A DNA stretch of 63,931 nt, the filler included, from Lenisia limosa (lineage: Eukaryota; Protista; Breviatea): the NCBI GenBank assembly GCA_001655205.1. It is 13 parts of 13 records of this genome, joined end to end, with 100 filler letters (N's around TTAATTAATTAA, not from the genome) between each part and the next. Parts side by side here need not be neighbours in the genome. Positions count along the whole stretch, not along the records: positions 1 to 7,901 come from LPNZ01007810.1; positions 8,002 to 18,103 come from LPNZ01010192.1; positions 18,204 to 23,577 come from LPNZ01011006.1; positions 23,678 to 30,698 come from LPNZ01010475.1; positions 30,799 to 33,188 come from LPNZ01010824.1; positions 33,289 to 40,570 come from LPNZ01009342.1; positions 40,671 to 44,250 come from LPNZ01002173.1; positions 44,351 to 52,144 come from LPNZ01009993.1; 5 more parts are not named here. The stretch is one strand, 5' to 3'. Below are positions 838-61,850 of this stretch, one piece after another. The position numbers and the translations under genes were made by a program. The notes beneath the pieces are model-generated. The model did not search any database, had not been told where the DNA came from, and saw nothing but the letters and a program-made list of their open reading frames with translations. How positions within the stretch are numbered: the first letter of the stretch is position 1; every line of letters starts with the position of its first letter.

Positions 838-900
838 AGCCAATAGAGTTGATTTTGGGCTTTTTTTATTTCATAAGTTTTCCAATTTTACCCCCCCCCC
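838..900 (+). repeat. Family A intron-acceptor motif (AGCCAATAGAGTTGATTTTGGGC-T-rich-TTTCATAAGTTTTCCAATTTTAC-polyC)
   Basis: Clear copies at 19674-19740(-), 21056-21135(-), 43587-43640(+), 61036-61095(+), 61354-61414(+). Degenerate or partial copies at 20076-20125, 21577-21610, 21877-21930, 23353-23392, 23838-23868, 27706-27724, 43923-43985. Confidence 0.85.
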
Positions 901-1292
901 NNNNNNNNNNNNNNNNNNNNNNNNNNNNNNNNNNNNNNNNNNNNNNNNNNNNNNNNNNNNNNNNNNNNNNNNNNNNNNNNNNNNNNNTCCCTCTAGGCTG
1001 GGGTGTGTACTAGGATGGTATGGACGTGGTTCCAATGTATTTTTGTTTCGGGATGCTTGATGATTTTCTCTTCCAAGAAGTAACATGTGGTTTCCATATT
1101 AGGAGAAATAAATAGGATAGGAAGGGAAAGAAGCTCAAGATTGTATTAACCCCTGTCTGATACTGTTATTGAGAGGGGTGAACCATCTTATCCACAACAT
1201 TTGGAGATTGAAAAAAACAAACAGAATAGAGTATTATTATGAGCACCCAAATGGTGACGCCTCAATGGATTGAAGGGGCATTCATAGTCCAA

Positions 1293-4200
1293 CTAGGAAC
1301 GTCTCTGTCGGGGCTGGCGAATCCCGATTTTTGAAGGCATGGGGCCTGGCTTACCAAATTTGATTTGGCGGATTATACGTGACGGCAAATGCATTGGCTG
1401 TTCCTCACCATCACTGTCGGCTGAAGAGTGAGGACCATGTTGAGGGGTTGTACAATAATATAATAATATAGAAACAGAAATACCAAACGATTGAGACCCT
1501 CACCCACAAAATGATTTACCCGAAGTCACGGGAATGTTGAAGGAATCTGCTGACTTTTTCCTGGGGTGTGATTAGGACAGGATTGCTGATCATCTCATTA
1601 AAGACGATAAAAACATGCAAAAAACAAAACAAGTTTTGTACTTCTAAAACCGTATTGCTATGCTTCAGCTTTGTCCAACTCCTCCCTTATCAATAGTTTC
1701 TCAAAAACTCAACTTCCACTTTTAACCCGTCCCTAAACACGAACTAATCTCCGACCACACCCACCTCGGGAACAGTGTTGTAGCCATATCCTTGTCATCG
1801 ACGAGAGAGTCCAAATTCACAACCGGTCGCGGCGGCGGCGTCATACTCGACCGTCGCTCCGGGGTGCGAGAGGCAGACCGTCTTCGGAGAGGGGGGGTAT
1901 CAATTAGATGCGTGATACAATGCTTAATACTTCTGGAAAATATGTTTTAGAGGTGCGAGGATTACAATAAAACCATAATTCACAGCCCTGATATCATTTC
2001 AACAATTGGTCTCATACAACTCATAATCATTAAACAACATAGCACTGAAAATTGCCAAGTCACAATTACAGAACAACCAACACAACCTCCAACCGCTTTT
2101 TCTTCTTCTTGGCCGATTTAGACTTTGCTGCGTTGTCCATAACCAAGTCCGACGACGACGACCTCCTGGTTAAGTATAACGGAGACGGTGCGGGCTGGTT
2201 ATCTTCCTTCTTTGGAGATGGTTCAGGCTTTTCCTCCTTCTGCGTGCCTGGTGTTTCTGAGGGCTTCGTCTTCTTGGTTGTTGGGGTCTTCTTTACGGTT
2301 TTGAGCTTCTTATTACCCTTGGCTTTGGGGGTGGATGTGTCATGCGTGACGCCTTTTTGTTGAGATTTGGCCTAAGAGTGTTAGATATCCTTCCTGTTGA
2401 CGAGGGATTTTGATAAGACATGTATCACCACATAATTTCTCATGTTTAAGGTGATTTTAAAGGAAATTGATTGTTCAATATCATCAGTATTTACGTTTAA
2501 TCGAATGGAGAAGTATCAACGAAACGTTGATTCCATTAAGCTCATTATTTTGTGATTTCGAATAATTCAAGGAAAGTAGTAATACTGTAGGAATTTAATA
2601 AAATTTTATTAAAAAACGTGCTCAACATCAGTCCACTAAAATATGTTTTGCAATTGACAGAGAACTTGAAAAAATTTACAAATCCTGAAATTTTGACACA
2701 ATAAATGTTGTTTGATGTGCAAAATACACTTTAATAAACGGGAAATGTACAAGGAGAGAGCAGGGAACTACCTTTTTACTGCTGACAGGCTTGCTATCCT
2801 TCTTCTTTGACTTGTCTTCTTCTAAATAACGTTCATTTGGTACAACAACCCTTATGAGAATGGAAGAGAAGCCCTAACAACAACTGCTGCGACAATCCCC
2901 CCTCACCTTCACTCTGCCTTGACTGCCCTTGCCCCATTTTGAGAATAGGAGTTATTTATTACTTTCAAGATGAATTTATCAATTCAGAATAAGTATGGTC
3001 GTGTTTGCTTTGTATAATCCAAGTAATCTCTGGTTTTGGATGGATTTTTTTTTTTTTTTTTTCTCTGAATTGGTCATCCATCCTTCCCGAAATACCCTGG
3101 GGTCCTATGGACTGAAAAGGAAAGTAAATGTATGTTACTATGTTACTTAATTACAAAGATACAAGTAGTTTGGTGATGATTTGCCCCTTGAAGGTTGCTA
3201 CCTTCAGAAAACTGTTTCAGGGTCAAAGGTTTAAGGTTCCAAGGTTCAAAATAAAGAACTGAAAAAGATAAAGGTCTTTTTGAATATCAACATCCCACAA
3301 TTTCACAGAAATTACTGCACATCCAACTTGCATCAAAGAAAAAGCATAAATAACATCTAACACACAGGAGGCATCCGGAAGCCATAGACCTTGATAAAGC
3401 CGCTACCATCTCTTCTGAGATGAAGCGGTGTTGGGACGCGATGAGCTGCCGGTGGTAGGGCGCGAGGACGGCTCAATACGGCCGCTTCGCCGCTTGGTGC
3501 GGGGCTGGCGTGGGGGGGTGTTCCGCGATGCTCTACTACGTCGGCGCAAACTCTGAAAGATATTATTTTAAAACATAAGCAGGAATAAAAGCTACACTAC
3601 ATGGTTAAACCCCCCCACGGAAACAGGGCTTCGCTCTGGGGAGGGGTTTGGGATGAGCTGGTGATCCACGAGCACATCTTGGATCTTAGAGATCACTTCA
3701 TTGGCCATCTCGTTGGGAAGGTTGGTGTGGAACCTGGGGTTACAATGGAAGGGGGGAACAGAAAGAATCATATCAAGGTCGAAATATCTCACTTTATAAA
3801 TGACAGCACTCTACAGTTAATTTCAAGCTTCATTCACAAAAATGATAGTCAATCCAATTTGAATATTCCATCCTGGCTTACGAGTCATCATTATCCGAGA
3901 CATCACCCGAAAGACTATGTCGCGATGCGGACAGCACGACGGGGTCCAAAGACGTGTTTAAGGGGCACATGTTCAGCCACTCCTGCAAGGACATGGTCCC
4001 ATGGGAGGTTGACGGCCGAAGCTGATGCGTGAAAAACCGGTCAAATGGATGGAATTCACAAATGGAAAAGAACCAACCCCTTAAAAACAATAAATATTCC
4101 AGATACAGCAAGGTGGGGACCCTACCTCCGTGGCAGGGGTCACAGGCCGAGTGATAGTGACAGGGCAAGGTAACGAGCTAATGCCAAATGCTGGGGGGTC

Positions 4201-6561: not shown

Positions 6562-6633
6562 TACCACATCCGGGAGTCGAACCCGGGCCGTCTGCTTGGA
6601 AGGCAGAAATCCTAGCCGTTGGACCAATGTAGT
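6562..6633 (-). tRNA. tRNA-Gly(TCC)
   Basis: Reverse complement folds as a 72-nt cloverleaf: acceptor ACTACAT/ATGTGGT, anticodon stem TCTGC-CTTCCAA-GCAGA, T-arm CCGGG-TTCGACT-CCCGG, with A and B boxes. Confidence 0.9.
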
Positions 6634-13920: not shown

Positions 13921-14789
13921 TTCTCATTGTGTGCTTTTATTGAAATAATTATTCTTGCAAGGAAATTCAGAGTTAAATGAATGTTTCTGAGACATGTGTA
14001 CAATACATAAAAAGAAGCAAATTTTGAAAATATTAATTAATCCAAGGTTTATGCGGAGCAGCCTATACTACGTATATCATATGATATACTATACTATTAT
14101 AGTATACTATATGATATGCTTTCAACACTAAACGGGTATTTCAATCTGAGCTTTCTGTAATGTATGGAAACGTTTGACCTCTGATTCATCTGTGTAAGAG
14201 TCGTCCCATTTGAGGAATTATTTCCTCTGCTTTTTCTCATTACCAAATACTCTACCTTGCCATTAGCCCAGCTTTCGTCACCATTGATCGTCCTGTTTGT
14301 CCCTTAGCCAACATTTCGCGGTATTTCTTCGTTACTTTTTAGGGTGACATTAACTGCCCGCTCAGCTCGGCTGTTTTCCAGCTCCCTAACCCAATAGGCG
14401 TGTGGTCCAGCGTGGCTGACGATTGGAGCAGACATCTCTCAATTTCTTGTGAGTGCCTGAGTCCAACGCTGGCGTGTGGTATCTGACTGTGTCGCCTTCG
14501 AACTATTGGCAGATAACCTAGCAATGTATGAGCGGAAGTCCTCGTCGAACGTCAATCAGGTATACAAACACTTGATTCTGACATGTTAAACTAAGAGTGT
14601 AGAACAACATTTAGTTTGAGTTGTGTTACTTCCAAACCATGGTTAATTATACATACGTATGTATGTATGTGTTATATCATATCCACGAGTTGATATGGCG
14701 GAGTAAATTTTTTTAATGGTCTCTAGTATGTAAAAAAGAGGGCCATCTTATTTAGACCTTGTGTAACAGGATCTTATCTGTATATGTAG

Positions 14790-15645
14790 GTCCCATGACC
14801 GCTCCTCACCTCTTTGTGTCGACCACGGCTGCTTTGATGAGATCATGATGCCCATGGCCCTTCTCAGTAAGGTGTCAACATGGTCAGGTCACCTGTCAAA
14901 AGAAGCCAATTTCTTCGGGCATCTGGGGGAGAAGGTGATTACGTCTTTGACTCCTCTTTCCATCAGCGAGCACGTTCTAAAGCTCGTCAAGACCCTCACT
15001 GCTGAAGGTCACATCATTGCTCTTGACAACCTGTTTACTTCGACTACGCTCTTCAAAACCCTCAAGGCTCAAGGCATCAACGCATGGGGCACGAACCGCA
15101 ACGCAAGAGGCGCCCCCTACACCTAGTAAGAAGCCAGCTCATTCCTCGATAAGAAAGGTAAACAACATCGAGATGTGATATCCACTGGAGCTGCTGGCTG
15201 GATGGAGGGCCCACAACAATGATGACAACTTTTGGTGATGACATCCGCTCCACATCAGTCAAGCGTCGCGAGCCTGACTGTCATGACCGAGTTGTATGAG
15301 GGATGTTAATGAATTTTTTATGATTATGGCTTTGTTCATATTTCATTGCTTTTGACCGTTTTCGCTGTTGTACAACCTGATTATGGTGTTGATCTCACCG
15401 ATGCTCTTCCCCTTTTGTAAGGGGGGACTTATCTTATGTGTTAATTACAAATCTGTTTAATTTTTAATATTGAAAATTTGGCACCACCTCAAACTCGGCG
15501 AAGATGTGCATTGCACTACATAATTGACCAATCCATGCTCAATGTGTAATTGCCTACTCTGACTTCCTCTCCTCTGCAGGACGCCCAGGTATTGACCGCA
15601 AGAGCTACCACATGCGTGTCACCGAGTCCCTTGTCGGCATGTCAC
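14790..15645 (+). mobile_element. piggyBac-type transposase relic (DDE_Tnp_1_7)
   Basis: EHVLKLVKTLTAEGHIIALDNLFTSTTLFKTLKAQGINAWGTNRN matches the piggyBac DN.FTS..L...L...G..A.GT.R motif. Downstream YN...GVDLTD and HYIIDQSMLNV motifs follow, with stops and frameshifts. TIRs not found. Confidence 0.85.
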
Positions 15646-17480: not shown

Positions 17481-18213
17481 AAAAATATGCTCATCGTAAA
17501 ATACATTCAGTAGACTTAGGGGGGGGGGGNNNNNNNNNNNNNNNNNNNNNNNNNNNNNNNNNNNNNNNNNNGCTTTACAACAGAATAACTGTCATAGAAT
17601 CTCCAGTTAATAAGAGGAGACATTAACTCTTTTCTATCTGTTGAGGTTGGTGTGTAATCTCAACCACTTTGTATTATTTACTATAGTCAGCTGTCTGCTG
17701 AAATGGCTCTTTAATCATTGTTATGTGTAATATATTTTCTAAATTTGATTCAACAAGGATTTAAATTTACAACAATTTCGAAATATGATTTTTCCTCTCA
17801 ATAATTAAGGTATTTTTGAAGATAAGTTGAGAAAATTTCAAAAAGCTCTCACGTTTTCGGTAGTGCTCGCGTTTTTGGGCTTTTCATATAGTATATATGA
17901 TATTTTTACATGGTATTATATACGACTACCCAAAAATAAACACAATAGTATATGATATAAAATAAACACAAATAGTATTATATTATATCGAGAAATAGTA
18001 TATATATCACACCGTCCGTCCATATATCTGTGAATTTTCCTCTATCTGTGAAAGCAAGCCAAATGAACATTTACTTTGATAGAATAAGTTGAGTATTACA
18101 GTANNNNNNNNNNNNNNNNNNNNNNNNNNNNNNNNNNNNNNNNNNNNTTAATTAATTAANNNNNNNNNNNNNNNNNNNNNNNNNNNNNNNNNNNNNNNNN
18201 NNNTGAACCATAC

Positions 18214-23152
<4,939 letters not shown>

Positions 23153-23427
23153 NNNNNNNNNNNNNNNNNNNNNNNNNNNNNNNNNNNNNNNNNNNNNNNN
23201 NNNNNNNNNNNNNNNNNNNNNNNNNNNNNNNNNNNNNNNNNNNNNNNNNNNNNNNNNNNNNNNNNNNNNNNNNNNNNNNNNNNNNNNNNNNNNNNNNNNN
23301 NNNNNNNNNNNNNNNNNNNNNNNNNNNNNNNNNNNNNNNNNNNNNNNNNNNNATTGGAAAATTTAAGAGACGAAATCAGCTCTATATAGATGACTAACAA
23401 GGTGCTATGGTTAATAGATAACGATGT

Positions 23428-23577
23428 TGGTGAGGCACATAGAAAGCTGTGTGCACAGCGCTGTTAGGCAAATGATTGGGTGAATCAATATGAATAATAT
23501 ACTATAATCCAGTATCTCATAATCGTGATGGTGTGGGCGGCTTCGGCCAGATACAACCTTATTTCATATCGTTTTCA
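23428..23577 (+). repeat. Family B ~170-bp interspersed element
   Basis: Shares GAGGCAC..AGAAAGCTGTGTGCACAG..GGCAAATGATTGGGTGAAT..ATCTC..GTGATGGTGTGGGCGGCTTCGGCCAGATACAACCTT with 12 other loci. Confidence 0.85.
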
Positions 23578-23677: not shown

Positions 23678-24690
23678 CGGTACGGGCGACAGTGTTTGCT
23701 CCGGACCAGCCCCCGCCAGGAGTGGTAGCCCCTGAAGTGCCCGGGGCCATTTCGAAGTCTCCTTTCATCCATGTTTGGGGATAGAAGACATCCCGTGCCC
23801 AACCCTCCATTAAATCAACTTCCACACACCACACCCCGGTTGATTTTGGGCTTCTTTTTTTTTTTTTTNNNNNNNNNNNNNNNNNNNNNNNNNNNNNNNN
23901 NNNNNNNNNNNNNNNNNNNNNNNNNNNNNNNNNNNNNNNNNNNNNNNNNNNNNNNNNNNNNNNNNNNNNNNNNNNNNNNNNNNNNNNNNNNNNNNNNNNN
24001 NNNNNNNNNNNNNNNNNNNNNNNNNNNNNNNNNNNNNNNNNNNNNNNNNNGGGGAGGGTCCTTTTAAGTAAAACAACAACTATTCACTCCTTTGTTGACT
24101 CAGGCGGTCTTGTGGCTGATTATTATAATCCCTAGATCTATAGCCCTTTGATCATCCAAGATTGACGTTTGACCGTTTTAGCGGTTCCTTCCTGATAACA
24201 TGACTATCCCTTGTGTGCATGCCGCTTTGGTTAACCCTGATTGGAGTNNNNNNNNNNNNNNNNNNNNNNNNNNNNNNNNNNNNNNNNNNNNNNNNNNNNN
24301 NNNNNNNNNNNNNNNNNNNNNNNNNNNNNNNNNNNNNNNNNNNNNNNNNNNNNNNNNNNNNNNNNNNNNNNNNNNNNNNNNNNNNNNNNNNNNNNNNNNN
24401 NNNNNNNNNNTGCCATATCTTCTGTCTTGACACGCAGACACGGTCCTCTGTAGCGCCAATATGAGTACAACGCGAGATGTGCGGAACCCTTTCTTCAAGG
24501 GGAGATTGCAAGTGGCCCAGGTGAGGAGCGGGGATCTTTCGGAGTTGTGTCTGTCAATTTCGTTTCCTTGTAATCAAAAATAATATTTTACTTCACCCTC
24601 ACCCTCCCAGCCCTACTTCGACCCCGACACGTGCCTGCTGCTCACTCTCGTCACCATAGATCCCCAAACATTGTGGGAGCGGTGTTATTT
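23678..24690 (+). CDS. Hypothetical protein fragment (multi-exon, gapped)
   Basis: Open exon-like blocks VRATVFAPDQPPPGVVAPEVPGAISKSPFIH, RFLPDNMTIPCVHAALVNPDWS and PYFDPDTCLLLTLVTIDPQTLWERCYLERM with GT/AG ends. Confidence 0.4.
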
Positions 24691-24987: not shown

Positions 24988-25111
24988 TATATAGCAATCA
25001 GAAATAAAGATGTATCTGGCCGAAGCCGTCCACACCAGCTCATATTAATTCACCCAATCATTTGCCTTACAACTCTGTGCACACAGCTTTCTGCGTGCCT
25101 CCCCAGCATAC
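24988..25111 (-). repeat. Family B element (GTATG orientation on minus strand)
   Basis: Reverse complement GTATGCTGGGGAGGCACGCAGAAAGCTGTGTGCACAGAGTTGTAAGGCAAATGATTGGGTGAATTAATAT...GGCTTCGGCCAGATACATCTTTATTTCTGATTGCTATATA. Confidence 0.9.
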
Positions 25112-25181
25112 AAAATAGCTTTTGGGGATATTGAGAAAGTCAGCATTTTTGAACAGAATTGAAGACCAAGATAAAACAAAC

Positions 25182-28100
25182 CATTTGAGGGGGCAGAAGT
25201 AGCAACGTTCTTATAGTCGAGGCAGTACTGATCATAATCGAGTGTAGACGTCCACATAAGAAGCTAAATAGTGGTAATGAGACAAATGTACTGTGGTGAA
25301 ATATTCAAAATATAGCACAGAAAAATGCACTGTTGAAAAACGTAGCATAAACAAATATTCCTTTGGAAAATATAACATAGAAAAAAGACGACCACAGGAA
25401 TGTGGACCAATAGAAAGATAATGTCAAGAATCAACGAATCATATATGTGGGTCCTCAAAGCTCCGGACATCATTCAAAATTCCCGGACACATCAAAANNN
25501 NNNNNNNNNNNNNNNNNNNNNNNNNNNNNNNNNNNNNNNNNNNNNNNNNNNNNNNNNNNNNNNNNNNNNNNNNNNNNNNNNNNNNNNNNNNNNNNNNNNN
25601 NNNNNNNNNNNNNNNNNNNNNNNNNNNNNNNNNNNNNNNNNNNNNNNNNNNNNNNNNNNNNNNNNNNNNNNNNNNNNNNNNNNNNNNNNNNNNNNNNNNN
25701 NNNNNNNNNNNNNNNNNNNNNNNNNNNNNNNNNNNNNNNNNNNNNNNTCCTCGGAGTAATTGGTTCTGGATTCCCCCTTGCTTTGGCTATGTAATGGTGA
25801 ATTTTGAGGGAAAAATGCTAAAAATAGCACTGTCTACAGGGCCATTTATTCCTTGAATGTGGCCTTTTATAACGGTTTTTGCTTGTTTTTGACCGTTTTT
25901 GGACCGTAAATAGAGAGCTTAGGGACTTAATTTGGTTTTGACCCGCTAATATGTTAAATTGGGGCTTCATTATTTAATTAAGATTGAGATTACTTTCAAA
26001 AACAGAAGGGAAATGGGGTTTCTGGGAGGTTTATGGTGATTTTGTATGGAAAACTCAAGCTGTCCGGGAGTTTTGATGTGTCCGGGAATTTTGAATGATG
26101 TCCGGAGCTTTGACTATACATACTATATATAGCAATGAGAAATAAAAAATAAGGTTGTATCGAATATATCATACCAGTAACCAGAGCAATGATAACAATA
26201 ATACGAGAGGAGATCGACATGGTTTGAAGACGAAGCTACAACCAATTGCATCTTGAAAAAAGATATTGGGCAGCTTGTTTGCTAGAATAAAAATCCACCA
26301 ATTTTGTGACATCACCCACTTCATCAGCATGCTCCTCGAAATCCGGGTGTTGCTCCGGGTTCTCAATCCCCTCAGCAGGTAGCACCGAACCAGGTGCTAT
26401 GCCTTCTCGATATAGTCTCTTCAACCATTCAATCTTCTTCTTTTTACGGGATAGTCGTACCTATAAGTGGTCAACATCAAAAAAATGGAATCTGAACACA
26501 TGCATATCATATGCTGGGGAAAATAAAAAAAAGTAGTTTCAGGCCAAACAGTGTTGGGATTCCAGTATGATAAAAATACCCCCAATCATTTGCCCTACAC
26601 CTCTGGGAACTCAGCGATTAAAAAAGAAAAACACAAAAGATAGTCATAATGCAAATATGAATTGCCTTACGTCATCAATTTTCTTCATTTTGGCAGCCTT
26701 CTCTTTCTGAAGAGCCAAAACAATGTCTTTCTGAGGCGGTCAAAAGAGGAAAGCTATGTCCTGTATCCAAGGGAGTATCCAGTGAGCGTAGAGAGACTGG
26801 GCTTATATTTCCAACTCTGCGTATTAAAATGTTAGCTCCACCTTCCCCACCTGTGAGGGAGCTTCAAAGGCAGCATGCGACTCTTCTAAAGAAAAATCGC
26901 CAACTGTATGGGTGAATAGGTTCTTGAAATATTAAAATGATCATAAGAGTATATCATTGACCGACCCATTAATAAGGATATCAAATAGGTTTAAGACCTT
27001 CACCATTCTTAATTATGTCATTCTGCCTAGTAACCCTCAACCTGGCAAAAAAAACACCTCTGCCTCCACCCCCAAACCTGTAACACCTCACAATATCATA
27101 TTAAAGCTTGAATTTGGGATAATTCTTACATAATCACTGTTGCGTTCTGCACTACTCTTCGCCTCAAAAAATAATCTATCAGCCCCACGCGTGATTTCTT
27201 TTTCCTAATTGAGTGCTATCCAATCATCTCACAGCAAAAACCTGTGACTCCTCCACCCACAGCAATCCCCCCACAAACCTGTGCGCCAGGTGTTATTTTC
27301 AACCCTCTGGTACCACTCCTTGTTGCGAGAATTCTGAACCGCTTGTCGGACATTTGCTGGGGGGGGGGGGNNNNNNNNNNNNNNNNNNNNNNNNNNNNNN
27401 NNNNNNNNNNNNNNNNNNNNNNNNNNNNNNNNNNNNNNNNNNNNNNNNNNNNNNNNNNNNNNNNNNNNNNNNNNNNAGTCAGTCAGTTATTGTAGCTCAT
27501 ACCGGGTCGGATTAAAAACAATAATAAAAAAAATCAAGCAGGGAGCAACACAATGGCAGCCCAACCAACACGCAGTGAAACTTTCAAGCTTGAGAGGCTG
27601 TGAGACCTTGGCGTTATCCCCATGCTTTGCTTTAGACTGAGCTTCTTGGAAGTAATCTCGCGGAGCAAAAGCGTTGATATCCACAAGCGGTCGATGTGTG
27701 AAGATCTGGAGGGGGGGGGGGTAAANNNNNNNNNNNNNNNNNNNNNNNNNNNNNNNNNNNNNNNNNNNNNNNNNNNNNNNNNNNNNNNNNNNNNNNNNNN
27801 NNNNNNAAAACTCAACTTCATCATAAAAAGCGTAACAAAATATCTGTAAAATACTCCCAGAGCCTGACCTTATAGAGAATGTTTGGTGGGAATTTAGCAC
27901 CCCCTAATCGGAAACGAATATGAATACCCTGAAAAGTGAACATGAAGCAGAACATCAATAAAAACAAAGCCATTTGGCACATGTATAGAAATAAATGAGT
28001 ATCAATACAGACAGCCCCCCTCCCCACCGCCGCCACGTCTATGAACTCGGCTTCGGTCGGGTTTATAGACCTCAGCAGCATTCCTGGGTCTACGTTTTCA

Positions 28101-30240: not shown

Positions 30241-30379
30241 ACAATATCATATTAAAGCTTGAATTTGGGATAATTCTTACATCATCACTGTTGCGTTCTG
30301 CGCTACTCTTCGCCTCAAAAAATGATCTATCATCCCCACGCGTGACCTCTTTTTCCTAATTGAGTGCTATCCAATCATC
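30241..30379. repeat. 139-bp dispersed direct repeat, copy 2
   Basis: Near-identical to 27090-27228, same orientation. Confidence 0.9.
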
Positions 30380-30911: not shown

Positions 30912-32522
30912 AGGCTGAAAGTATGAGGGGGCCCCCAGGGTTCCAAGCTCCGCTGAGCCGCAATGCCCAGCCTCAACCACAACAGGTGGGATGTAAGGGT
31001 TTTAAAAGATTTACATATGATATAGCTGCGATTTTTTTTCTGGGTTAACNNNNNNNNNNNNNNNNNNNNNNNNNNNNNNNNNNNNNNNNNNNNNNNNNNN
31101 NNNNNNNNNNNNNNNNNNNNNNNNNNNNNNNNNNNNNNNNNNNNNNNNNNNNNNNNNNNNNNNNNTGTGTTCCGGTCATTCTAGCCTCTCACTCCTTTAG
31201 TCAGTCTCAGCCCCTCCAGAAGTCCAGGTATGGGTTGATACAGTGTAACATAAGCCTTGACCGATTTGCACTACGATTTGACAAGGAAAATCGGTCAAGA
31301 ATCCCGGTCACTGTAGGATTCTTTTTATGACACAAAAAACTACACTATTTTTCTGATTGCATTGCTCCATTACTTCTCTCCAGTATTGTTTAAATGCATG
31401 TGTAAAATGTACTAATGTATGTAGTATTTACGTGTATGTACATGTATTACACAAAAAACTTCCACCATTAACAACAGCTAAAATCCGGTCACGCTGGATC
31501 GCAGATCATAAGAACAGTTTACACCCCTGCAGGATATGTGGAAGGTTTGCCTTATTTGTTTGCCTTTACTTTTTTTTTTTGTTTCGATCACATTACTTTT
31601 CTTTTATATTTATTTTCAAGGTCTTTTTTCTGAGTCTCACAATAACCCAAATTGACGCTCTGTTTCTAACCGCTTAGGAGCCGTTGACAATCTACCCAGC
31701 CCCGACCTAGGATGTTTTGAGCCAAAAAAGAAGGCTGTTTTGCCTCCTCTTCCTCCAGTCAACCCCGTGAGCTTTTCGCGCTTGTTTTATTTTTAACGGG
31801 GGGGGGTGTCATAGCTAAAGGATTATATTAAATAGATGATGAATTGTTTGAGACAGGAAGTCCTTTTTAGTCCGTACTCCATATTGAATTAAGACATGAA
31901 TTCCTGAGAAGTCCTAACTCCGTATTGAATTACGCATCTTGTTAGCCTCGAGTTTTAATTCTGCAGGTGAGCTGGGCCGCGGCAGCAAATGAAGGGTGGG
32001 ATGACGGGCCTCTCCCGGACCCAACTCCGAATGATGATGCCACTGTAGAGGGGGGGGTTGGCGCAACTAGAATTAATACGAATTATAATGGGGGATTGTG
32101 TATTGTTGCAAAACCCTACAACTGCCTGACTTCTAGGTAATCAACGGGAAAACCATCCAAGACGCTGAATGTGATATGGCAGAATACTATGCTGAACTTC
32201 AAAAAGACAATGACGCTCACCAATCGGCTGTTAATCCAATTGCGAATAGGGACAGGTGCATATGGGGTCTTATCTGTGGATTTAGGCATCATACATCATA
32301 TTGTTTTCTTAACAAAATAAATACTCAAAACATCTTGCACAGATACAATTTTGATTCTCTCATTAAAAGAGCAACCTCACAACATTGTCAATATGAAATC
32401 TCTTCTAATGCCCATATCTTTGTTACAATATCCTCAAACACCGCAGGTCTTGGCTGAACATGCCGAAAGGACGCAGTGGTGGAGGCGGGTGGAAGACTGA
32501 CGGCTGGGCTGCTAAACCCTAG
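30912..32522 (+). CDS. Hypothetical protein with a possible C2HC-type zinc finger, 3' part
   Basis: Exons AESMRGPPGFQAPLSRNAQPQPQQ, AKIRSRWIADHKNSLHPCRICGR (LxPCxxCGR), VSWAAAANEGWDDGPLPDP, VINGKTIQDAECDMAEYYAELQKD and RSWLNMPKGRSGGGGWKTDGWAAKP*. Confidence 0.5.
31241..31313. mobile_element. 73-bp Tc1/mariner-type MITE
   Basis: TA|CAGTG...CACTG|TA termini with internal inverted repeat CTTGACCGATTT / AAATCGGTCAAG. Confidence 0.8.
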
Positions 32523-36907: not shown

Positions 36908-39900
36908 ATGTCTAATCGCGGCCGAAAGCCAACCCCAAATCACTTCCCTGTGACCCTCCCTCTTCTCAAAGATGCTTGGAACGGAGAGGATCCTGATTCA
37001 GGGGAGCCATATCTCTCTGTAAGAGAGAAAAATAATTATCTCAAAAAGGCAATTGAAGCCTATACTGACTTCGACAACATTGGAATTCGCCCATCAATGA
37101 CTTCATTCCTCCATATGGACTGCGACAGTTCTTTTTCAATGGTGATTCCAAGAACAACTTTTATTCGCTCATTGACCCGCTTTGTCCACCATAAGCTTCT
37201 CAAAAAGTCAGAGGATGTTTTTGTCTTCTTTGGAACTACGAAGGGACGCAAGCCACTCGGAAATGATGCCAAGAAAGAGGCTGAGGAAACATGCCGCAAG
37301 CTACAATCGGTAAGAAGTTTTTCTTTGTTGAGCAACAGTATCACTTTTCCCTTCAAAGGGAGTTATATCTTTGTTGATTAGAGAATTGCTGACTTATTTT
37401 AGATGGGGTTTCAATGAAGATCGAGGACATTGTGAGAAAGCTACAGGAGAAAGACTCAATGGGGAGAGGTTCAAAGACAAAAGCCAAGGCAATCAGAGCT
37501 GAAGCCAGAAAGCGAGTCCCCTCAGNNNNNNNNNNGGTAACTATTTTCACACTATTTTCTTTTCATTTATTATTGTGATTTCACTAACATGCGAGCCAGA
37601 GAGCATCTTAATCATGGCTCGTCTCTGGAATGCTGGAGTTCGAATCGCTATAAAGGTCAAATTTGCCTCAAAATCCAAGACAACTATCGAAGCCAAAATG
37701 AAAGCATCTATNNNNNNNNNNNNNNNNNNNNNNNNNNNNNNNNNNNNNNNNNNNNNNNNNNNNNNNNNNNNNNNNNNNNNNNNNNNNNNNNNNNNNNNNN
37801 NNNNNNNNNNNNNNNNNNNNNNNNNNNNNNNNNNNNNNNNNNNNNNNNNNNNNNNNNNNNNNNNNNNNNNNNNNNNNNNNNNNNNNNNNNNNNNNNNNNN
37901 NNNNNNNNNNNNNNNNNNNNNNNNNNNNNNNNNNACCATTTTCTCATCTTATTCTGTTTTTTGATGGTTTCAGTGTGTTGAAGCGCCCCTGTCCAAGCCG
38001 AAAGCTCTTACTCTGATGCAGTCCTGGGTGGCACTATTGGACGGTTCTGCACCTGATGTGGATATCGAAAACCAGCACATACTCTTCTACGACGACAATG
38101 CGTGGATAAAGGTGGTGTTTAAGGACATGAAGGATGACCCCATGGCCTCTGCGGTCACGATTACGTCGATGTCGGGTGAGATAGTGTCGTCAGGCATTGT
38201 TGTTGGATCCCCGCACTATGCCACAGCTGCTGCCAAGCGGGAGAAGAAGGCTGCCCCGTCAACCCACCCCTACTTACCAAAACTCTCTTCCGTCGATACT
38301 GCCGAAGCCAAGAAGATCATTCAATGGATGAAAGAAAACAATCCTCTTGAGTCGCCAGTTCTTTCCCCCCCAAAGCCGGAGTCAGTTCAAGCAGCTGAGG
38401 ACTGGAACGTGGTTGCAATCGGTGTCAATAGTAGTGCTTACTTTTCGACTGAAGCTTTCTTGCGGTGCCTTGAGGTAGTGTACCGAAACAAACGCTCATC
38501 GTGCCATGACGCTTTGATCATGATCGGAGATGGTGCCAGAAAACACGCAACATTAGCGGTAGGGTAACAGCTTTTGTGAAAGATACCTTATTCTCATATT
38601 TTACTTTTCAGGTGTGTGCTGCTATCTTCTTACTTTACGGTATAATATTCATCATTGAGCCGTCGTTCACCAGTCATTTTCTTCAGGTTTGTCTTGGAAA
38701 ATATGCTGTAACCATTTCACAATATCTGATTGCCTTCAGGTCGCCGATTTCACACTACCACGCCAAAGTAAACCAATCAGTATACAGACAAATAGCTAGC
38801 TGGAAGGAGGCCAATTCCGGAAAGTGAGCGGGATGAGTTTTTTTTTGTTGGATGTATCTACATTTCTTGAATATTTTTTTTATCCATATTAGGTCCATCA
38901 AGGAGGAGGAATTGTTCCAGCTGATTGCAAAAGCTATGAGCAGTCCAAGCACAGCAGTTATTCGGTAGGGCTATAGAAATTCTTGCATAATTGTATCCGT
39001 AACTTCATTGACGCACTCTCACTGTTAACCCCAATACCCCATCCTCCCTCCTCATAAATATGAGCAAATTAACGTTATAGTGCCTCCCAGAAGTCTTGTG
39101 GTTACGAAATCTCTGAGTATAACCCATTCCAAATCCCACCCTCCCTCTACCTCAAAGGTTTTGTCTTCCGCCCCCCACCATCCCAAGGTTACCCTGCTCC
39201 TACCACCCAGTACCTCCATGCACTATTCTCCTTCACCAACACTTACTGCCCTTTCAACTACCCCAACCTCTACCCCCGCATTCCAGAATTCCCTCGAATG
39301 ACTTGCAAGCCAACTGCTCTCGAGAAGGCCCAGGCTCTCACCACCATCAACATGGCTAAGCCTGAAGGTTGCATTGAGTAAGAGCAATCCCTTGCCAATC
39401 AGGCAGTGTCCTTTGTGCCAGAGAACACCCCAAGTCCGGAGTTTGTCAAAGGTGCTGCCGCAATGCTAGCTGCTACCTCCGTGAAGTTCCCATCGACACT
39501 TTCACGGATTAGGGAGCTCAGCCAAGCAGCTACAGCATTCGATGATGATATGGCCGACGCTATTGTTCTCGCCACCTAGCTTGCTCTTAACCAAAGAGCA
39601 ATTGTGGAGAACGTCTCAAGACCACTTTCTTTCTTTCACATTCCAGCAAACCACAGAATTGCTNNNNNNNNNNTGCCACACAGCTTGCTGTTAACCAAGG
39701 AGCAATGGTGGAGAACGTCTCAAGACCACTTTCTTTCTTTCACATTCCAGCAAACCACAGAATTGCTATTTTAGCACCAGGGAAGGTGTGTAGGTATTGC
39801 AATTATCGCTGAGACAGATTTTCTTTGACAATTTTCACATTTTTTTAGATTGTATGTGACACTGCTGACGTGAAGGAGACAGCCATTCGTCAGCTCCAAT

Positions 39901-40570
39901 GTGACACCTCGCAGGGAGCTATTCTATCCCATCTAACTGCAATTAAGAGAGGTTGGTTTGATGAAAGGTTTTGAAATTGTCAAAATGTATCACGATTGTT
40001 AACGTATTTCTATGTTTTCTTTCTTAGATGGTGCTAAANNNNNNNNNNGCAGTGTCCTTTGTGCCCGAGAACCCCAAGTCCGGAGTTTGTCAAAGGTGCT
40101 GCCGCAATGCTAGCTGCTACCTCCGTGAAGTTCCTATCTACACTTTCAAGGATCAGAGAGCTCAGCCAAGCAGCTACAGCATTCGATGATGCGGGTAGTG
40201 ATATGGCCGACGCTATTGTTCTCGCCACGCAGGTTGCTGTTAACCAAGGAGCAATTGTGGAGAACGTCTCAAGACCACTTTCTTTCCATTCAACCACAAA
40301 GTTGCTATTTTAGCACCAGGGAAGGTGTGTAGGTATTGCAATTATCGCTGAGACAGATTTTCTATTAAAATTCTCACATTTTTTTTAGATTGTATGTGAC
40401 ACCGCTGACGTGAAGGAGACAGCCATTCGTCAGCTCCAATGTGACACCTCACAGGGAGCTATTCTATCCCATCTGACTGCAATAAAGAGAGGTTGGTTTG
40501 ATGACAGGTTTTTAAATTGTCAATGTATAACGATTGTAAACGTATTTCTATGTTTTATTTCTTAGGTGGT
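36908..40570 (+). mobile_element. Intron-containing pogo/Fot1-type (DDE_1) transposase or transposase-derived gene with a long C-terminal extension
   Basis: N-terminal VIPRTTFIRSL (psq-HTH-like). FYDDNAW (first Asp), GVNSSAYFSTEAFLRCL...ALIMIGDGARKH (second Asp, LLILDGxxSH-like), IFIIEPSFTSHFLQ (LPxHTSHxLQ-like), and later IRxASQKSCG. GT/AG introns lie between these blocks. Confidence 0.65.
39403..40570 (+). repeat. Tandemly duplicated exon block
   Basis: 39403-40018 and 40029-40570 are about 90% similar by eye. A 3' sub-segment appears a third time at 39674-39780. Copies are separated by 10-N gaps. Confidence 0.8.
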
Positions 40571-41574: not shown

Positions 41575-43922
41575 CTAGAACTCGGGTTTGCCTTTGTTGA
41601 TAGTCATTGGTAGCAGTTGCTCCATTTGGGAGGCGATGTCATATTCGATGGCCAGTCGGTCCCCCACTTGCTCCTGGGAATGATAAACAAAAGATTTCTA
41701 GTTTGACAATAACCAATAATATATCATCACCATCTCAATCATACATTCTCATCCCCCCCTTCCCCACAGTGTTTTTGTCGCAGTAGCGCACGAACCAGGA
41801 GTAGTGGTTTAGAGAGGCGGTCAGATTGCGGCGGAAGTCATCAGGATTGTCCATTCCGGCCTGGGGAAAAGAAAGGAATATTATTGAAGCATTTTTGCGA
41901 GTAAAAACAAGCATGAGCAGGAAACGTTAAAATTGCGGAGCGGGAGAGGGATGGAATATGATATGTATGCCACACACATCCCGACACAAAAGAATAACAA
42001 ACACAGACCACGCACCTTTGCGCAAACACGCGCCATTCTGAATCGTGCTGAGAGGCAGGCATCCACTGCAGCTTCATGATAGGGCTTATTATTACCAGTT
42101 TCTGGGGGGAGGGGTGAATTGGGAAGGTGTATGGAAAATATGCGCTTCTCGTTAGCTGCTGTGGATATCATGTTGAAATAAGATTGTTTTCAGAATTATC
42201 AACAGGCAAGCCGTCATCATCACATTATCATCAGGCTCATCATCACATTATCAGGCTCACCTTCATAGGAGTCCAGGAAGCTCTGGAAGTGCTTCAAACT
42301 CTACAGGCGTTACAGGTATGGTTAGCAGCAAATGAGACGTAAAGCTTATTGAACCATATCAAAAGTACTCCAGTACTGCCCGCGGACCTTCTCAGAAAGG
42401 TCCGTAAGTCTGGCTGCAGAATGTTCATGGCCCTTTGCAATCGCGTCATGCTGGGGGGGGGGGGNNNNNNNNNNNNNNNNNNNNNNNNNNNNNNNNNNNN
42501 NNNNNNNNNNNNNNNNNNNNNNNNNNNNNNNNNNNNNNNNNNNNNNNNNNNNNNNNNNNNNNNNNNNNNNNNNNNNNNNNNNNAGTCCTAGAAAAGAAAA
42601 CTGAATGATGGGGTATATAAGGGGGTGTAACACAGACCCTCAGGGTTATCTGTTAATTGTCGAAATTGACTGACAAGCCCCACCTTCAGTTCCAAGATGG
42701 CAGCGTAGCATTCGCCAAGTTCGAATGAGATGGAACGCACTATGTTCTGAGTTGTTAGGGGCTTTGCTCTGGTAATAAATAAGCACAATTATCCTTTAAC
42801 AGCCTGTCCCAAAAGAGAGGAAGAGAGAGGGAGAGAGAGAGAGAGAGAGATAAAAGGGAGGTCCCATATTTGACCACATAACATACCTGATAGTGCTGTT
42901 TGGAGATTTCGCCCAAAAGGGGTTCCAACAGTCTAATTCGTCGCTGGAGTGTAAGGGCCGCAATGGTATTTTTTGTCTCAGAAGTGCAAATAAAGAATAT
43001 AGAGGCTTTTGATTTAGGAAAGGTTATTATTCAAAGCGGTATTCAGCAAAAAAGCCCCTTAATATCATACCTTGTGCATTTTAGCCGCGTTTCCTGGGTC
43101 GGCTTCGAACTGAACCAGCGACCTGGGAAAATTAGATGGGTGCCAACATTTACTGGTGGAGGAGGGTGAGACAAAGATGTGTTTTTATATAGCAATGAGA
43201 AATAAAAAAATAAGGTTGTAGTATCTGGCCGAAGCCATCCACATCATATTGAATTATAGTATAATAATAATACACGATGAAGATGTGATTATTAAAGAAC
43301 CACCCCTTAAAAATAATCATGGAACGAAACAACTGACCCCAACACTATGATATAGTATAATAACATAATTAAATATCCTAAGCCCCACCTGTATAGTGTG
43401 GACATTTCCTGCAGAAGCGCGACATGCTCGGTGACAAAGCCCTCCAGAACGTAGTACTTCAGAGAGTATTGCAGATCCTGGGGGTGTGAAGGGAAATGTA
43501 ACAGTGCAAGCATTTAAGATAGGCTTTGTGTTGAAAACAGCAATCATTACACAACACTTTCACCAAAAGTTATAAACAAAAAAGCCCAGAGTTGATTTTG
43601 GGCTTTTTTTTGAGAAATTTTCCAATTTATCCCCCTCCCCTCTGCATACTGAAAGACCTTGGACAAATATTTCCTTGGCATCTTCGAAATGCTGGACAGG
43701 CTGCAAGCGTTAAGGTAGAGAGCCAAAGAGGGCACTCCCATTTAGTGTACAATCTTCAAATAAGAGGTCATTTCTACTGTTATTCTCACTTTAGTGATAT
43801 CGGGCATCATCCAGATGGGAACGGTGTCATAAACAATGGGTTCTGGGGCCTCCGGAATGTACTCCTTTTTCTCGAGCAGACATCGAGCTTTGGCTGATTC
43901 GATTCTGTTAGCTTCCGCTTCC
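41575..43922 (-). CDS. KIFBP: KIF-binding protein (KBP_C domain), 3' part
   Basis: Exons FEDAKEIFVQGLS, DLQYSLKYYVLEGFVTEHVALLQEMSTLYR, SLVQFEADPGNAAKMHKRRIRLLEPLL, RSISFELGECYAAILELK, LKHFQSFLDSY, ACLSARFRMARVCAK, NLTASLNHYSWFVRYCDK and EYDIASQMEQLLPMTI...EF* align with the recalled KIFBP C-terminus. Possible further exons at 44090-44215; 5' end lost at the gap. Confidence 0.9.
42814..42850. repeat. (GA)n microsatellite in a KIFBP intron
   Basis: Direct inspection. Confidence 0.9.
43587..43640 (+). repeat. Family A motif, antisense to KIFBP, at the donor end of intron 43478-43649
   Basis: CAGAGTTGATTTTGGGCTTTTTTTTGAGAAATTTTCCAATTTATCCCCCTCCCC ends 8 nt from the GT donor on the opposite strand. 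Confidence 0.8.
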
Positions 43923-44350
43923 CTAGGGTGGAGTGACAAAGGAAAATGTAGGGAACAAAAAAATCACAAAAATCAACTCTGCTGGTTAAACACGAAAAAC
44001 ACACGACTGTTTGAAAATAACAAAACAGACAACGCACACTACGCTTACACAAGCGGGTTTTATTAAAGGCTATTTACGAGCCACGTAACTTCTATGGGGC
44101 TTTCATCAACCCTCATTGAAAAGATTGAGGAAAAATAATAAAAATACAAGATTTCCCTCCAACGCTCTCTCTTTGCGATAGATCTCTTCAGCATCTTTCA
44201 CCATTTCACAAGCGTTTTCTATATTATAAAAAGAGATCACCTATTTTAATNNNNNNNNNNNNNNNNNNNNNNNNNNNNNNNNNNNNNNNNNNNNTTAATT
44301 AATTAANNNNNNNNNNNNNNNNNNNNNNNNNNNNNNNNNNNNNNNNNNNN

Positions 44351-44485
44351 ACAAGGTTGTATCTGGCAGAAGCCACACACCATCACGCTTATAAGAGATA
44401 TTGGATTCAAGTACAATATTAATTCACCCAATCATTTGCCCTACAACCCTGTGTACATAATTTTCTGTGAGCCTCCCCAGCATAC
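44351..44485 (-). repeat. Family B element whose first bases are a splice donor
   Basis: Open exon ...LNDLATEPDGTAAIQ is followed directly by GTATGCTGGGGAGGCTCACAGAAAA, the family B start. Confidence 0.8.
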
Positions 44486-52244: not shown

Positions 52245-54380
52245 TGACGTTGGACCTATCACCGAAGGAGTACCGCAAATCGCAGTTGTACCAATGGCAC
52301 CTGTTCACCTGGTGAGCAGATTGTTACAATCAAGGAGGATGAGGTTGTTGCAAAATTGGAGGANNNNNNNNNNNNNNNNNNNNNNNNNNNNNNNNNNNNN
52401 NNNNNNNNNNNNNNNNNNNNNNNNNNNNNNNNNNNNNNNNNNNNNNNNNNNNNNNNNNNNNNNNNNNNNNNNNNNNNNNNNNNNNNNNNNNNNNNNNNNN
52501 NNNNNNNNNNNNNNNNNNNNNNNNNNNCCGCTGCAGTTGGCCCAAGGGGTGTCACAGACAGCGAGGAAAAGGTCGACTTCAGCAGGAGTGAGCTGATCAC
52601 GGTACTTCTACCCAAGCGTCTTTGGCACGGCAGCGTCCTCATTCTCCTTGGCAATCTCAATCAAGGAAATGAGCTCGGGGGTGTTCAGAATGCAGGAATA
52701 GGTGGCAAAGTGGCTTGGGTGAAGTGAACTGTCCCAGAAAGGTGGACGGCAAGGCTGGAAGGATCAACTGAGAGGCCACTTTCAACAGTGACAACAATAC
52801 CTCCAGCAGCGAAAGCACTTTTGATCTTTTGGGGAGAGGAGGCAGTATGGAAGGCGGTGGTTTGGGAGGTGTGAGATGGAAGGAGATAAACAAAGATATC
52901 GTGGAGAAAAAAGTATCGGAGTAGTGCAGGAGCATATCTTGACAGGTGACCGTCAAGGATAAGAAGGGCAGGAGCATTGGAGGGGAGGCCAAGCTTTTGG
53001 CGTTGCTCCTTGACAGCAGGTACAAATACATCAAATCCCAGCCGTAAAAGATTCCACGTTCTTATAGAATACAGAGAAGCAATAATGGTATCATTATTCT
53101 TCAAAATAGACAAAGTCAACTCACAAGATTCAAAGAAAAAAGGATAACTTCAAAAACAACACAATAATCCACAATACCTACCATCCATTGGGTGCATGAT
53201 ATGCCTTGGCACAATACTCTTTGGGGATGGCCTCTTCTTTTTTCACAGTCTTCTGCTTTACAAAAAACACAGGAAGGACTTGAAGAGGACCAGTGCTATA
53301 CAAGTGAGAAAGGATTTCAGCGTTTTCTCACCCCCACCCCTCAACTATCAGAAGTATTTACCCCTCCCCTCTTCTCATAAATAATCATTTTCTCAAAGTA
53401 TAAATGCAATTTATTTTCATCCCACAAACGCAATGGTTCCAATGAAAGTGATGTGGCTTGGGAGTGGGAGTCTTGCCGTAAGTTATTTTTGCATCCTTCA
53501 GCTGGATAACCTTTGTCTTGAATTTATTCCAGACCATACCAGAATGGAAAGACTTGTCGTCAATGACAGAGGTAAATTTATCAATATGGGGATCCGAGGT
53601 GACACCGAGGTGACACTGATCCAGAAGTTTAACCAAAACTACAATTCGCAAAAAAAGTACATAGTTTTGTAGCTACTATAAATATAAGAATATTCGAGGA
53701 TTGGTTGAGAGATGAGAAGTTCCGAGTGTCATCTTTTGAAAATCGAGTGTCCAACTCTGAAGATCATGATGACCTTTGTGATTATTTACAATGTTTTATG
53801 ATGATCCATCAAGTAACTATAGTAGGCCTTGACTACTGCCAAAGAATTCGGCACTACTACCCCTGAACACCCTCCATGCAAGGACTGGGCCAAGGATTGG
53901 CTCAAGAAGAATGCTGACATCTTGAAACTTGTGGTTGGTTGGTGATATTCCTCGGAACATAGTGACAACTACACAGTAGCTATCATCATTACTAGCCACC
54001 AGAAACACTCAATTAAATCATCCCAAATGCTTATAATCCCTTTTATAACGCTCACAGACCCCCAATGTACTAGACTCGGCAAGTGAAGGTCCTCTTATGT
54101 AGCATGCAGCTTCCCTTGCCTCCATACTAGTTTTTTGTCTTTGTTTATTTTGGAGTGAGTTTTGAGTTCATGTCCTTCTATTTAACTCTTCTCTTGCGTG
54201 TTTCTATTTTAATATGAAAGTGGGCTGATCTTCTCGGTGTTTTTTCTTTGAAAACTTTTTTTGTTTTAGATACACTGACTACGACCTTCAACCACAGTTT
54301 GTCACCCCTGTGAACAAGGGCACTATCAGGTTCCGGGAAGCCGTCCGGTGTTGCGTCTCTGGTACCCCCTTTCACGCTTT
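52245..54380 (-). mobile_element. Degenerate pogo/Fot1-type DDE_1 transposase
   Basis: FDVFVPAVKEQRQKLGLPSNAPALLILDGHLSRYAPALLRYFFLHDIFVYLLPSHTSQ is a typical DDE_1 core. It jumps straight to KIKSAFAAGGI, so the LQPLD segment is deleted. Frameshifts and stops elsewhere. Confidence 0.85.
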
Positions 54381-59900: not shown

Positions 59901-60010
59901 GTTACCTCCCTTGGAAAGGTAGCAGGGGGGCATATTTAGGGTTTCCCTTTTGTCCGAACAAAAACGATAAAAATGGTCTGATTTTTGGGACAGGAAGAAA
60001 GCGCCGTCAC

Positions 60011-60108
60011 AAAAGCTTAAGTTCGGTTCGAAAAAATATTGAATTTCTCGATAAATCTTCGAAAATTATCGATATTTTACCGGTATTTTTAACCGAAGTG
60101 AAGCCCAA
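60011..60108. mobile_element. hAT-type MITE
   Basis: TSD GCCGTCAC / CCCGTCAC (7/8). Confidence 0.85.
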
Positions 60109-60848
60109 CCCGTCACGTGTCTGAGCAAGATAAGGGCTTCTCTCCTATATCAATTCTAAACCCCCAACATTCNNNNNNNNNNNNNNNNNNNNNNNNNNNN
60201 NNNNNNNNNNNNNNNNTTAATTAATTAANNNNNNNNNNNNNNNNNNNNNNNNNNNNNNNNNNNNNNNNNNNNTGTACTGCAGGTGTGTTATATACTGTTT
60301 ACGCTTTTACGTTGTTATTCACTTAGGTACACTTTTATACACGCTGCTGTACACTTTTATTCACTTTTATACACTCATTGAAAGACAATATTACATAAAA
60401 TCGCGCTTTATTCACTGATAGCATGACTAATCTGTATGCACAGAGTTGTAAGGCAAATGATTGGGTGAATTAATATTCACTATAATCCAATATCTCTTAT
60501 AAGCGTGNNNNNNNNNNNNNNNNNNNNNNNNNNNNNNNNNNNNNNNNNNNNNNNNNNNNNNNNNNNNNNNNNNNNNNNNNNNNNNNNNNNNNNNNNNNNN
60601 NNNNNNNNNNNNNNNNNNNNNNNNNNNNNNNNNNNNNNNNNNNNNNNNNNNNNNNNNNNNNNNNNNNNNNNNNNNNNNNNNNNNNNNNNNNNNNNNNNNN
60701 NNNNNNNNNNNNNNNNNNNNNNNNNNNNNNNNNNNNNNNNNNNNNNNNNNNNNNNNNNNNNNNNNNNNNNNNNNNNNNNNNNNNNNNNNNNNNAAATAAC
60801 CAATATTCATTCTCTATTCCCTGTTAAGTTTGGGCCTAACCCCATCAG

Positions 60849-61850
60849 AGTTCAGCACCGCAAACTCTGGCCGTGACACTGCCGGTACGGTCTCCATTCT
60901 GCCCAGTGGGAGGGTGATGAAGGAACTGGTGATACAGAGGTTGATAGTTTGCTGTATATGATATATAATATCACGAATCACATTACTTTTCATCCATGAT
61001 CCCCCTGGCCTGTGCTTTATTTGTTTTGTTGTTTTCAACAGAGCTGATTTGAACTTTTTTTTTTTGTTTCATAATTTTCCAATTTTACCCCCCAGGTATG
61101 CTTCCGAGATGAGGATGAAGATGAGGTTATCCGAGCCGCTTCCTGCCAGCTCTGCATCAATCCTCACGCAATTGAAAACTCGCAAAGCCTCGACCCTAAC
61201 GCCGAAATGACCCCCCAGGTTTGTGGCTTGGGCTTTCCTTCGTTCCGAAAAAGACCAGTAAATTATCGATATTTATCGAGGATTTATCGAGATATTCTTT
61301 TGGGATCGTAGGGAAGCCCTATCCCTCTGATGTTGGGTTCTCCCCATTATCCCCAACAGAGTTGATTTGGGCTTTTTTTTTTCTCACACAAATTTCCCAT
61401 TTTACTCCCCCCAGGACATGGCTTTNNNNNNNNNNNNNNNNNNNNNNNNNNNNNNNNNNNNNNNNNNNNNNNNNNNNNNNNNNNNNNNNNNNNNNNNNNN
61501 NNNNNNNNNNNNNNNNNNNNNNNNNNNNNNNNNACCATTTGTCTATACACCAGGTATGCTGGGTTAAGGCAAATGATTGGGTGGATTAATAATCGAATAT
61601 CTCTTCATAGCGTGATGGTGAATGGCTTCCCAAATGCCGTGTTTTATTTCTGACCTCTGTATATATACCAGGTTTGTGTCAACCTTCCAGATGCGGAAGG
61701 TGGCTAGGTTTTCTTCTGCTACTTACCATATTAGGAAGGCGTTACGGACCAGTCCTTGCGATATCTTGCCGGGCGTGGAGGGGCCCGGGCCTTACATACC
61801 GGCAGCGTTGACTCCTGCATGTCTTGGCATGATGAGGCGGCCGACTCAAA
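60849..61850 (+). CDS. Hypothetical protein exons (may continue the 58.2-59.9 kb gene across the scaffold gap)
   Basis: In-phase exons FSTANSGRDTAGTVSILPSGRVMKEL|VCFRDEDEDEVIRAASCQLCINPHAIENSQSLDPNAEMTPQ|DMA...TICLYTR|FVSTFQMRK|EGVTDQSLRYLAGRGG. Confidence 0.6.
61228..61321. mobile_element. hAT-type MITE, diverged copy (intronic)
   Basis: Recognisable TIRs and internal ATCGAT / GGATTTATCGAGA motifs; TSD not evident. Another very decayed copy lies near 45301-45360. Confidence 0.7.
61554..61671 (+). repeat. Family B element constituting a whole predicted intron
   Basis: GTATGCTGGG...GGCAAATGATTGGGTGGATTAAT...ATCTCTTCATAGCGTGATGGTG...TTTTATTTCTGACCTCTGTATATATACCAG. Its removal joins two exons in frame. 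Confidence 0.7.

Follow-up and report, generated by a model that had tools for sequence, protein, structure and literature searches.

A dispersed repeat ending at the 3' splice sites of unrelated Lenisia limosa genes: a candidate element of existing introns

Introduction

When introns of unrelated genes end in the same sequence, the question arises whether a mobile element created those introns, entered them after they had formed, or took no part, the similarity being a splicing signal. We address this question in a 63,931-nucleotide (nt) stretch of DNA from the breviate Lenisia limosa (GCA_001655205.1), hereafter the window, in which a repeat that we call family A lies at the 3' ends of introns. 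A first-pass annotation had described a motif of about 60 nt shared by about 10 introns, and had attributed it either to introners, that is, introns descended from a mobile element whose terminus supplies the 3' splice site, or to an unusually long cis-acting acceptor code. Our findings indicate that family A is a real, abundant and oddly placed repeat. The explanation that we favor, and that we hold to be somewhat probable, is a non-autonomous element, probably spread by retroposition, that enters introns already in place and does so at their branch-site/C-tract.

Results and Discussion

Reality and abundance of family A

The window has a GC content of 40.5% and contains 63 N runs, 12 pairs of which surround a 12-letter spacer and thus mark it as 13 joined pieces; gap starts often coincide with C- or G-runs. 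It was compared with contigs of two public runs from one study, one whose kind is unrecorded but which behaves as DNA (X1) and one of polyA RNA (X2).

A gapped pattern of exact motif words occurs at four distinct places in the window and in none of 100 shuffles, and six family A cores are 82-96% alike over their aligned columns. Full cores are present in four non-paralogous genes: a gene with a leucine-rich repeat (LRR)-like appearance, GFAT, KIFBP and a gene near 61 kb. DNA contigs stack thousands-fold over the family; the summed depth, which is not equivalent to copy number, reaches 103,486 at 61072 as against 20-30 on unique sequence, and is near that of a miniature inverted-repeat transposable element (MITE) in the same window (150,767 at 61263). 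Only 8 of 180,449 RNA contigs were placed on the 61-kb stretch, and four of these lie on family A. The exact motif patterns had no match in metagenome contigs, viral contigs or prokaryote genomes.

The acceptor-side motif described in the first-pass annotation is therefore real and shared far beyond chance, although the length of about 60 nt given there falls well short of the at least 135 nt that we find. The 11 sites of that annotation are of unequal quality, and they do not include the well-conserved antisense copy at 43587-43643 or the copies at 20079-20137, 21950-22005 and 62089-62121. Five hold a full core (900, 19674, 21056, 61095 and 61414) and five are partial or degenerate, namely 21577 (3' half only), 21877 (5' half and TTTAC), 23353, 23868 and 43923; at 27706 only TTTAC and a C-run are visible, the remainder being N. 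Partial and degenerate copies score 33-49, compared with maxima of 47 in real T-rich background and 37-38 in block shuffles. Since these scores overlap or barely exceed the background, such copies are supported by their position more than by their sequence. A scan of the whole window yielded no additional copy above T-rich background.

Anatomy of the element

From 5' to 3', family A consists of a GC-richer part, a T-rich middle, the core, the word TTTAC and a C-run whose length varies among copies. The longest copy (766-900) extends about 75 nt farther 5' than the motif described earlier. Its beginning, 766-797, recurs at 62089-62121, loose ends of RNA contigs connect 61005 with the GC-richer sequence of 784-806, and DNA contigs join 61039 to 61353. 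Both long copies begin with TTAC, the word that ends the core; with boundaries set by eye, the longest copy carries TTAC at both ends and several truncated copies are preceded by a short C-run.

The two ends of the family behave differently. The 3' end is fixed: past the C-run, 151 DNA contigs carry further C before their sequences diverge (agreement 0.44 at the loose end after 61093). The 5' ends are ragged, with the 5' part present in two copies, a clear middle in fewer than half and some of the core in about 13. Copies are also stacked head to tail, at 22005/21942 and weakly at 697/766, and in one DNA contig stacked copies are separated by CCCCCT alone. The two inverted arms and fixed target duplication that are hallmarks of MITEs and other inverted-repeat DNA transposons were not found in family A, which has no constant target duplication and no inverted repeat. 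None of the six stretches tested folds better than its shuffles. A search of 600-900 against Rfam, with E-values up to 10, returned nothing credible, including no polymerase III head (tRNA, 5S or 7SL), although the true 5' end may lie farther out; a suspected likeness between the 5' part and 5S rRNA found no support in the same search.

The GT dinucleotides within and near the longest copy were considered as donors of a full-length introner. The GT at 770 was rejected, as the 28 nt preceding it (742-769) have an intron-like composition and its twin in the 62089-62121 copy is not a donor, there being no AG upstream. The GT at 735, which would leave an unrelated stretch of 31 nt if 598-734 were coding, was likewise set aside; the composition of 598-734 is intron-like and argues against coding.

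Position relative to splice sites

Eleven sense copies run up to an acceptor, or up to a gap in which one is expected. RNA contig 8 (run X2) joins GFAT exons across the introns ending at 21056 and 19674, whereas the acceptors at 61095, 61414, 27706 and 43923 are predicted only. Four further copies differ: the first has a tandem repeat between it and its AG, the second is stacked upstream of another copy, the third is truncated where the scaffold ends, and the fourth is in antisense orientation. The tandem repeat, at 19938-20078 between a degenerate copy and the acceptor, is perfect, with a 42-nt unit in 3.4 copies. The antisense copy lies in KIFBP, a few nucleotides inside a predicted donor at 43649, though the frame also stays open with a donor at 43664, 43697 or 43577; it is the only one found in 37 donor regions. 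In all eight introns measured, 53-168 nt of unrelated sequence separate the donor from the element.

The ordinary splice code of the host

Acceptors without an adjoining copy provide the code into which family A fits. The word YTNAY, with its A 7-20 nt before the AG, is present at 19 of 22 such acceptors, most of them in predicted introns and those of GFAT supported by RNA. Shuffles reach 9.8 on average and never 19 (0 of 5000), and the interval of 27-40 nt gives 7 of 22. Intron ends are C-rich (37% C in the last 15 nt) and intron starts G-rich (43% G in the first 15 nt of 36 donors). Such starts and ends could pair, and long G- and C-runs break the assembly.

At six of seven element acceptors, the terminal TTTAC or a TTTAC-like word (YTNAY) stands 9-18 nt before the AG, the distance seen in element-free introns, and this word is likely the host branch site, as judged from its motif. 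The letters between its last A and the AG vary, as does the distance, so the AG is not a fixed part of family A. The core also contains a second YTRAY 49-59 nt upstream.

Introner test and intron positions

In two introner surveys, similarity is required to reach both intron boundaries, and families failing this are dropped as secondary insertions (PMC9860276; PMC12130899). Similarity reached the donor in none of the eight motif introns, and over the first 50 nt the 10 motif introns are no more alike than the 25 others (mean score 14.2 vs 13.5). Judged by this sequence comparison, family A is not an introner by the defining both-boundary test. Direct repeats across the junctions of the eight motif introns measure 1, 1, 1, 2, 3, 4, 4 and 9 nt, compared with 0-7 nt in 20 other introns. 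The 5'-end comparison, code statistics and junction repeats were computed with a KIFBP donor at 44147, where 44163 is now adopted, and a few acceptor coordinates were 1-8 nt off in the core and 5'-end comparisons.

Intron positions in GFAT were compared with those of other eukaryotes, for which the best 80 of 385 loci were mapped; 36 of these are intron-bearing, with 28 distinct structures, and positions are numbered so that the P of PES is 351. Neither of the two RNA-confirmed motif introns occupies a position found in the other eukaryotes, in line with the first-pass annotation: position 351 phase 0 is shared with 0 of 36 and position 479 phase 1 with 0 of 34 covering intron-bearing loci, although one of the two locus-search patterns spans 351 and biases against finding a shared intron there. 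Similarly, 129 of 136 protein fragments of GFAT homologues read through 351, and breaks occur at the element-free positions 395 (3) and 415 (1). None of the 11 GFAT introns called, with or without the repeat, is shared with the 36 loci, which do share introns among themselves (495 phase 0 in 14 and 402 phase 0 in 7). An apparent intron at 421 phase 1 was discarded as an artefact of an N gap. GFAT carries about 10 introns in 300 codons, and the commonly shared positions are missing. The lineage gained many introns, and family A does not single them out, because the element-free GFAT introns are equally unshared.

Origin of family A

The fixed 3' end, ragged 5' ends, stacking and unrelated donor side together point to insertion into existing introns. 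Secondary spread of some kind is thereby quite probable, while for retroposition in particular the chances are about even or slightly lower. The family has the hallmarks of a retroposon without long terminal repeats (non-LTR), that is, a fixed 3' end, a simple tail and variable 5' truncation, with a tail of C rather than A. An RNA of the element would be copied by the reverse transcriptase of a partner, primed at the C-tract beside the branch site, and would enter pre-existing introns most likely via target-primed reverse transcription. The new TTTAC and C-run would replace the host branch site and pyrimidine tract while the host AG is retained; sense copies would be tolerated because these signals are taken over, and later copies would hit the same spot again.

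A more ambitious version of this account, which we consider possible yet doubtful, is a mobile element homing to spliceosomal branch sites, where it would rewrite acceptor signals across thousands of introns of single-copy genes and leave these introns functional. In such a splice-site safe haven, the C-tract or RNA bound by the spliceosome may act as the guide; family A may perhaps be the degraded end state of an intron-making element.

Several observations weigh against insertion by retroposition into existing introns. The branch site is assigned from a motif rather than mapped, the motif introns occupy unshared positions as an introner predicts, and DNA depth over the upstream T-rich part is as high as over the core, making the truncation gradient less clear-cut. 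The two runs of this one study showed no empty site, no autonomous partner or reverse transcriptase was found among the 20 exon and open reading frame (ORF) pieces scanned, and the literature searched offered no retroposon with a C tail. Additionally, long G-runs on the donor side hold no copy at the five places where their flanks are visible (292, 5097, 21778, 32050 and 47757), so plain homopolymer targeting does not suffice, and either selection or some cue from the context has to be invoked as well.

These data weaken the introner idea, and we regard it as unlikely that family A made these introns, with their 5' parts later replaced or brought along as variable flanks. The unshared GFAT positions, the homologue fragments, most of which read through 351 while a few break at element-free positions, the 9-nt direct repeat of one motif intron and the many introns gained in the lineage would all suit it. 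However, no donor is reached by similarity, the junction repeats of the other seven introns are at background, the element-free GFAT introns are just as unshared, and the locus search was biased at 351. Nor does an old or partly replaced family, as had been suggested, agree with cores so alike in introns whose 5' ends are unrelated. What survives of the proposed mobile origin is a dispersed, mobile-type repeat ending at the 3' splice sites of unrelated genes; the descent of the introns from it is not supported. Copying during repair, in which a break at a G- or C-run is repaired through invasion of a different C-run, with 60-135 nt of its upstream sequence copied, would let one acceptor sequence spread with no enzyme of its own. 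It would also give a fixed end at the run, a variable 5' extent and stacking, and template switching is further suggested by the fold-back at 43565-43643 and by the 42-nt tandem repeat. We nevertheless consider it improbable: a 5' start common to two copies and RNA contigs points to a defined master, and donor G-runs, expected to be affected about equally often, are not hit.

Two further explanations carry less weight. Family A could be one arm of a DNA transposon with long inverted repeats, or a rolling-circle or recombinase element, whose lost other arm would pair with splice signals. The KIFBP intron, which opens with an antisense arm followed by a sense fragment, and the intron ending at 21577, which starts G13-TAAAA and finishes TTTTA-C11-AG, are reminiscent of such an arrangement; the rarity of antisense copies in donor regions, the lack of folds above shuffles and the absence of a partner arm from the longest copy make it distinctly improbable. 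The least credible explanation, to which we attach very little probability, is a long cis-acting acceptor code maintained by selection without mobility. It would explain the strong sense and acceptor bias of the copies and the second YTRAY of the core, but the motif is not clearly traceable at the 24 acceptors examined that lack an obvious copy (lowest p 0.04), one copy is antisense at a donor, and the family runs 75 nt beyond the core. Moreover, the short code serves the element-free introns and suffices for the splicing of most introns, so a long one is not needed.

Comparison with known systems

Introners, as surveyed by Gozashti et al. (PMC9860276, 2022; PMC12130899, 2025), resemble family A in that introns of unrelated genes of an intron-rich protist contain similar sequence, which reaches a splice boundary; family A differs in that its similarity is confined to the 3' part and in lacking a constant target duplication or inverted repeat. 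The motif words are absent from the supplements of these two papers that were searched, files that may not hold sequences. Non-LTR elements with a specific target are known to make use of microsatellites and to form copies in tandem or with truncated 5' ends; Utopia, Togen and their kin share with family A a fixed 3' junction, 5' truncation and tandem insertion at one kind of target (PMC4640811). Their targets are multicopy (PMC4640811), in contrast to the branch-site/C-tract of single-copy genes that appears to be the target of family A. Family A also differs from target-specific non-LTR retrotransposons in its C tail and in that no coding partner was found.

Among short repeats, the MITEs of the window are, like family A, high-copy and intronic; unlike family A, which lacks inverted repeats and keeps to intron ends, they possess such repeats and occupy mid-intron or intergenic sites. 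Intronic short interspersed elements (SINEs) such as antisense Alu can supply a pyrimidine tract or acceptor signal from their T-rich part. These Alu-type SINEs make alternative exons and are spread throughout introns, while family A sits at constitutive acceptors. No such repeat family was found in the literature searched, though a paper on this organism could describe it.

The usual refuges of target-specific elements are multicopy genes or microsatellites. If our reading is correct, the branch-site/C-tract of ordinary introns would represent a new safe haven and a route for genome-wide turnover of splice signals. Introner pipelines discard one-ended families by design, and comparable families may have been overlooked elsewhere. 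Family A would also offer many natural insertions for testing branch-site choice in a lineage.

Copies of family A in the window

The individual copies are listed in Table 1.

Table 1. Family A copies, with their strand and intron context.
Coordinates	Strand	Copy	Context
697-769	+	Possible older degenerate copy; weak (p 0.015)	Directly upstream of longest copy
766-900	+	Longest copy, 135 nt	3' end of predicted intron starting at 598; runs into N gap
19674-19772	-	Full core and degenerate upstream part	RNA-confirmed GFAT acceptor, intron 19827-19674
20079-20137	-	Degenerate copy	GFAT intron 20242-19931; 42-nt tandem repeat between copy and AG
21056-21135	-	Full core	RNA-confirmed GFAT acceptor, intron 21452-21056
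21577-21605	-	3' half of core and C11	GFAT acceptor; exon end at 21576 in RNA
21877-21942	-	Conserved 5' half and TTTAC	Enters gap that must contain a GFAT exon
21950-22005	-	Second, degenerate copy (score 48)	Head to tail upstream of the 21942 copy
23353-23405	-	Partial copy	Precedes gap with start of GFAT exon; RNA loose end at 23152
23839-23868	+	5'-truncated copy	Enters gap; predicted + strand gene
27706-27725	-	TTTAC and C11, remainder N; putative member	Predicted acceptor
43587-43643	+	Well-conserved copy, antisense to KIFBP	Near donor of predicted intron 43649-43478; inverted fragment follows (fold-back)
43923-44038	-	Degenerate copy	Predicted KIFBP acceptor, intron 44163-43923
61005-61095	+	Copy and upstream T-rich part	Predicted acceptor, intron 60940-61095; no RNA cover
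61353-61414	+	Full core	Predicted acceptor, intron 61219-61414; 9-nt direct repeat across junctions; no RNA cover
62089-62121	+	5' part of second long copy	Cut by scaffold end

Host genes

The gene on the minus strand of 18204-23577 is confirmed as GFAT and its spliced reading frame is open; in a tree, the host sequence lies on a long unresolved branch outside the sampled animal and fungal groups. KIFBP is supported by the Pfam domain KBP_C (E 1.8e-5), and the frame of the predicted gene is open across seven exons; searches of the PDB with KIFBP exons returned nothing useful. These two gene names are thus supported, while LRMDA and C11orf65, also proposed earlier, are unconfirmed. Exon searches found no close protein relatives. 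The exons of the 61-kb gene lack RNA cover, which is uninformative.

Other repeats and features

A second repeat family, starting GTATGCTGGG, occupies 13 stretches, including 61554-61671 (+), 44351-44485 (-) and 24988-25111 (-). Two of its copies, those at 44485 and 61554, start at a predicted donor; the others are mid-intron or antisense. The copy at 61554 fills a whole predicted intron of 118 nt and has a 7-nt direct repeat. This family is a better introner candidate than family A.

The MITE, of 80-110 nt with inverted ends GGGCTTCAC...GTGAAGCCC, is found in 13 stretches within 16510-62039, in introns and between genes; it is often flanked by TTA or TAA and is presumably Harbinger-like. A third, small palindromic intronic repeat is centered around TCTTGACCGATTT (19178-19241, 22164-22237, 31250-31315 and 18343-18372), and a 139-nt repeat is present in two copies at 96% (27090-27228 and 30241-30379).

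A transposase remnant lies at 14767-15123 (+; PF13843, E 2.2e-7), and an ORF at 52685-53149 (-) appears DDE-like by eye, with no Pfam match. The stretch 39403-40570 is coding-like and partly triplicated, and the window holds a single tRNA gene, at 6562-6633 (-).

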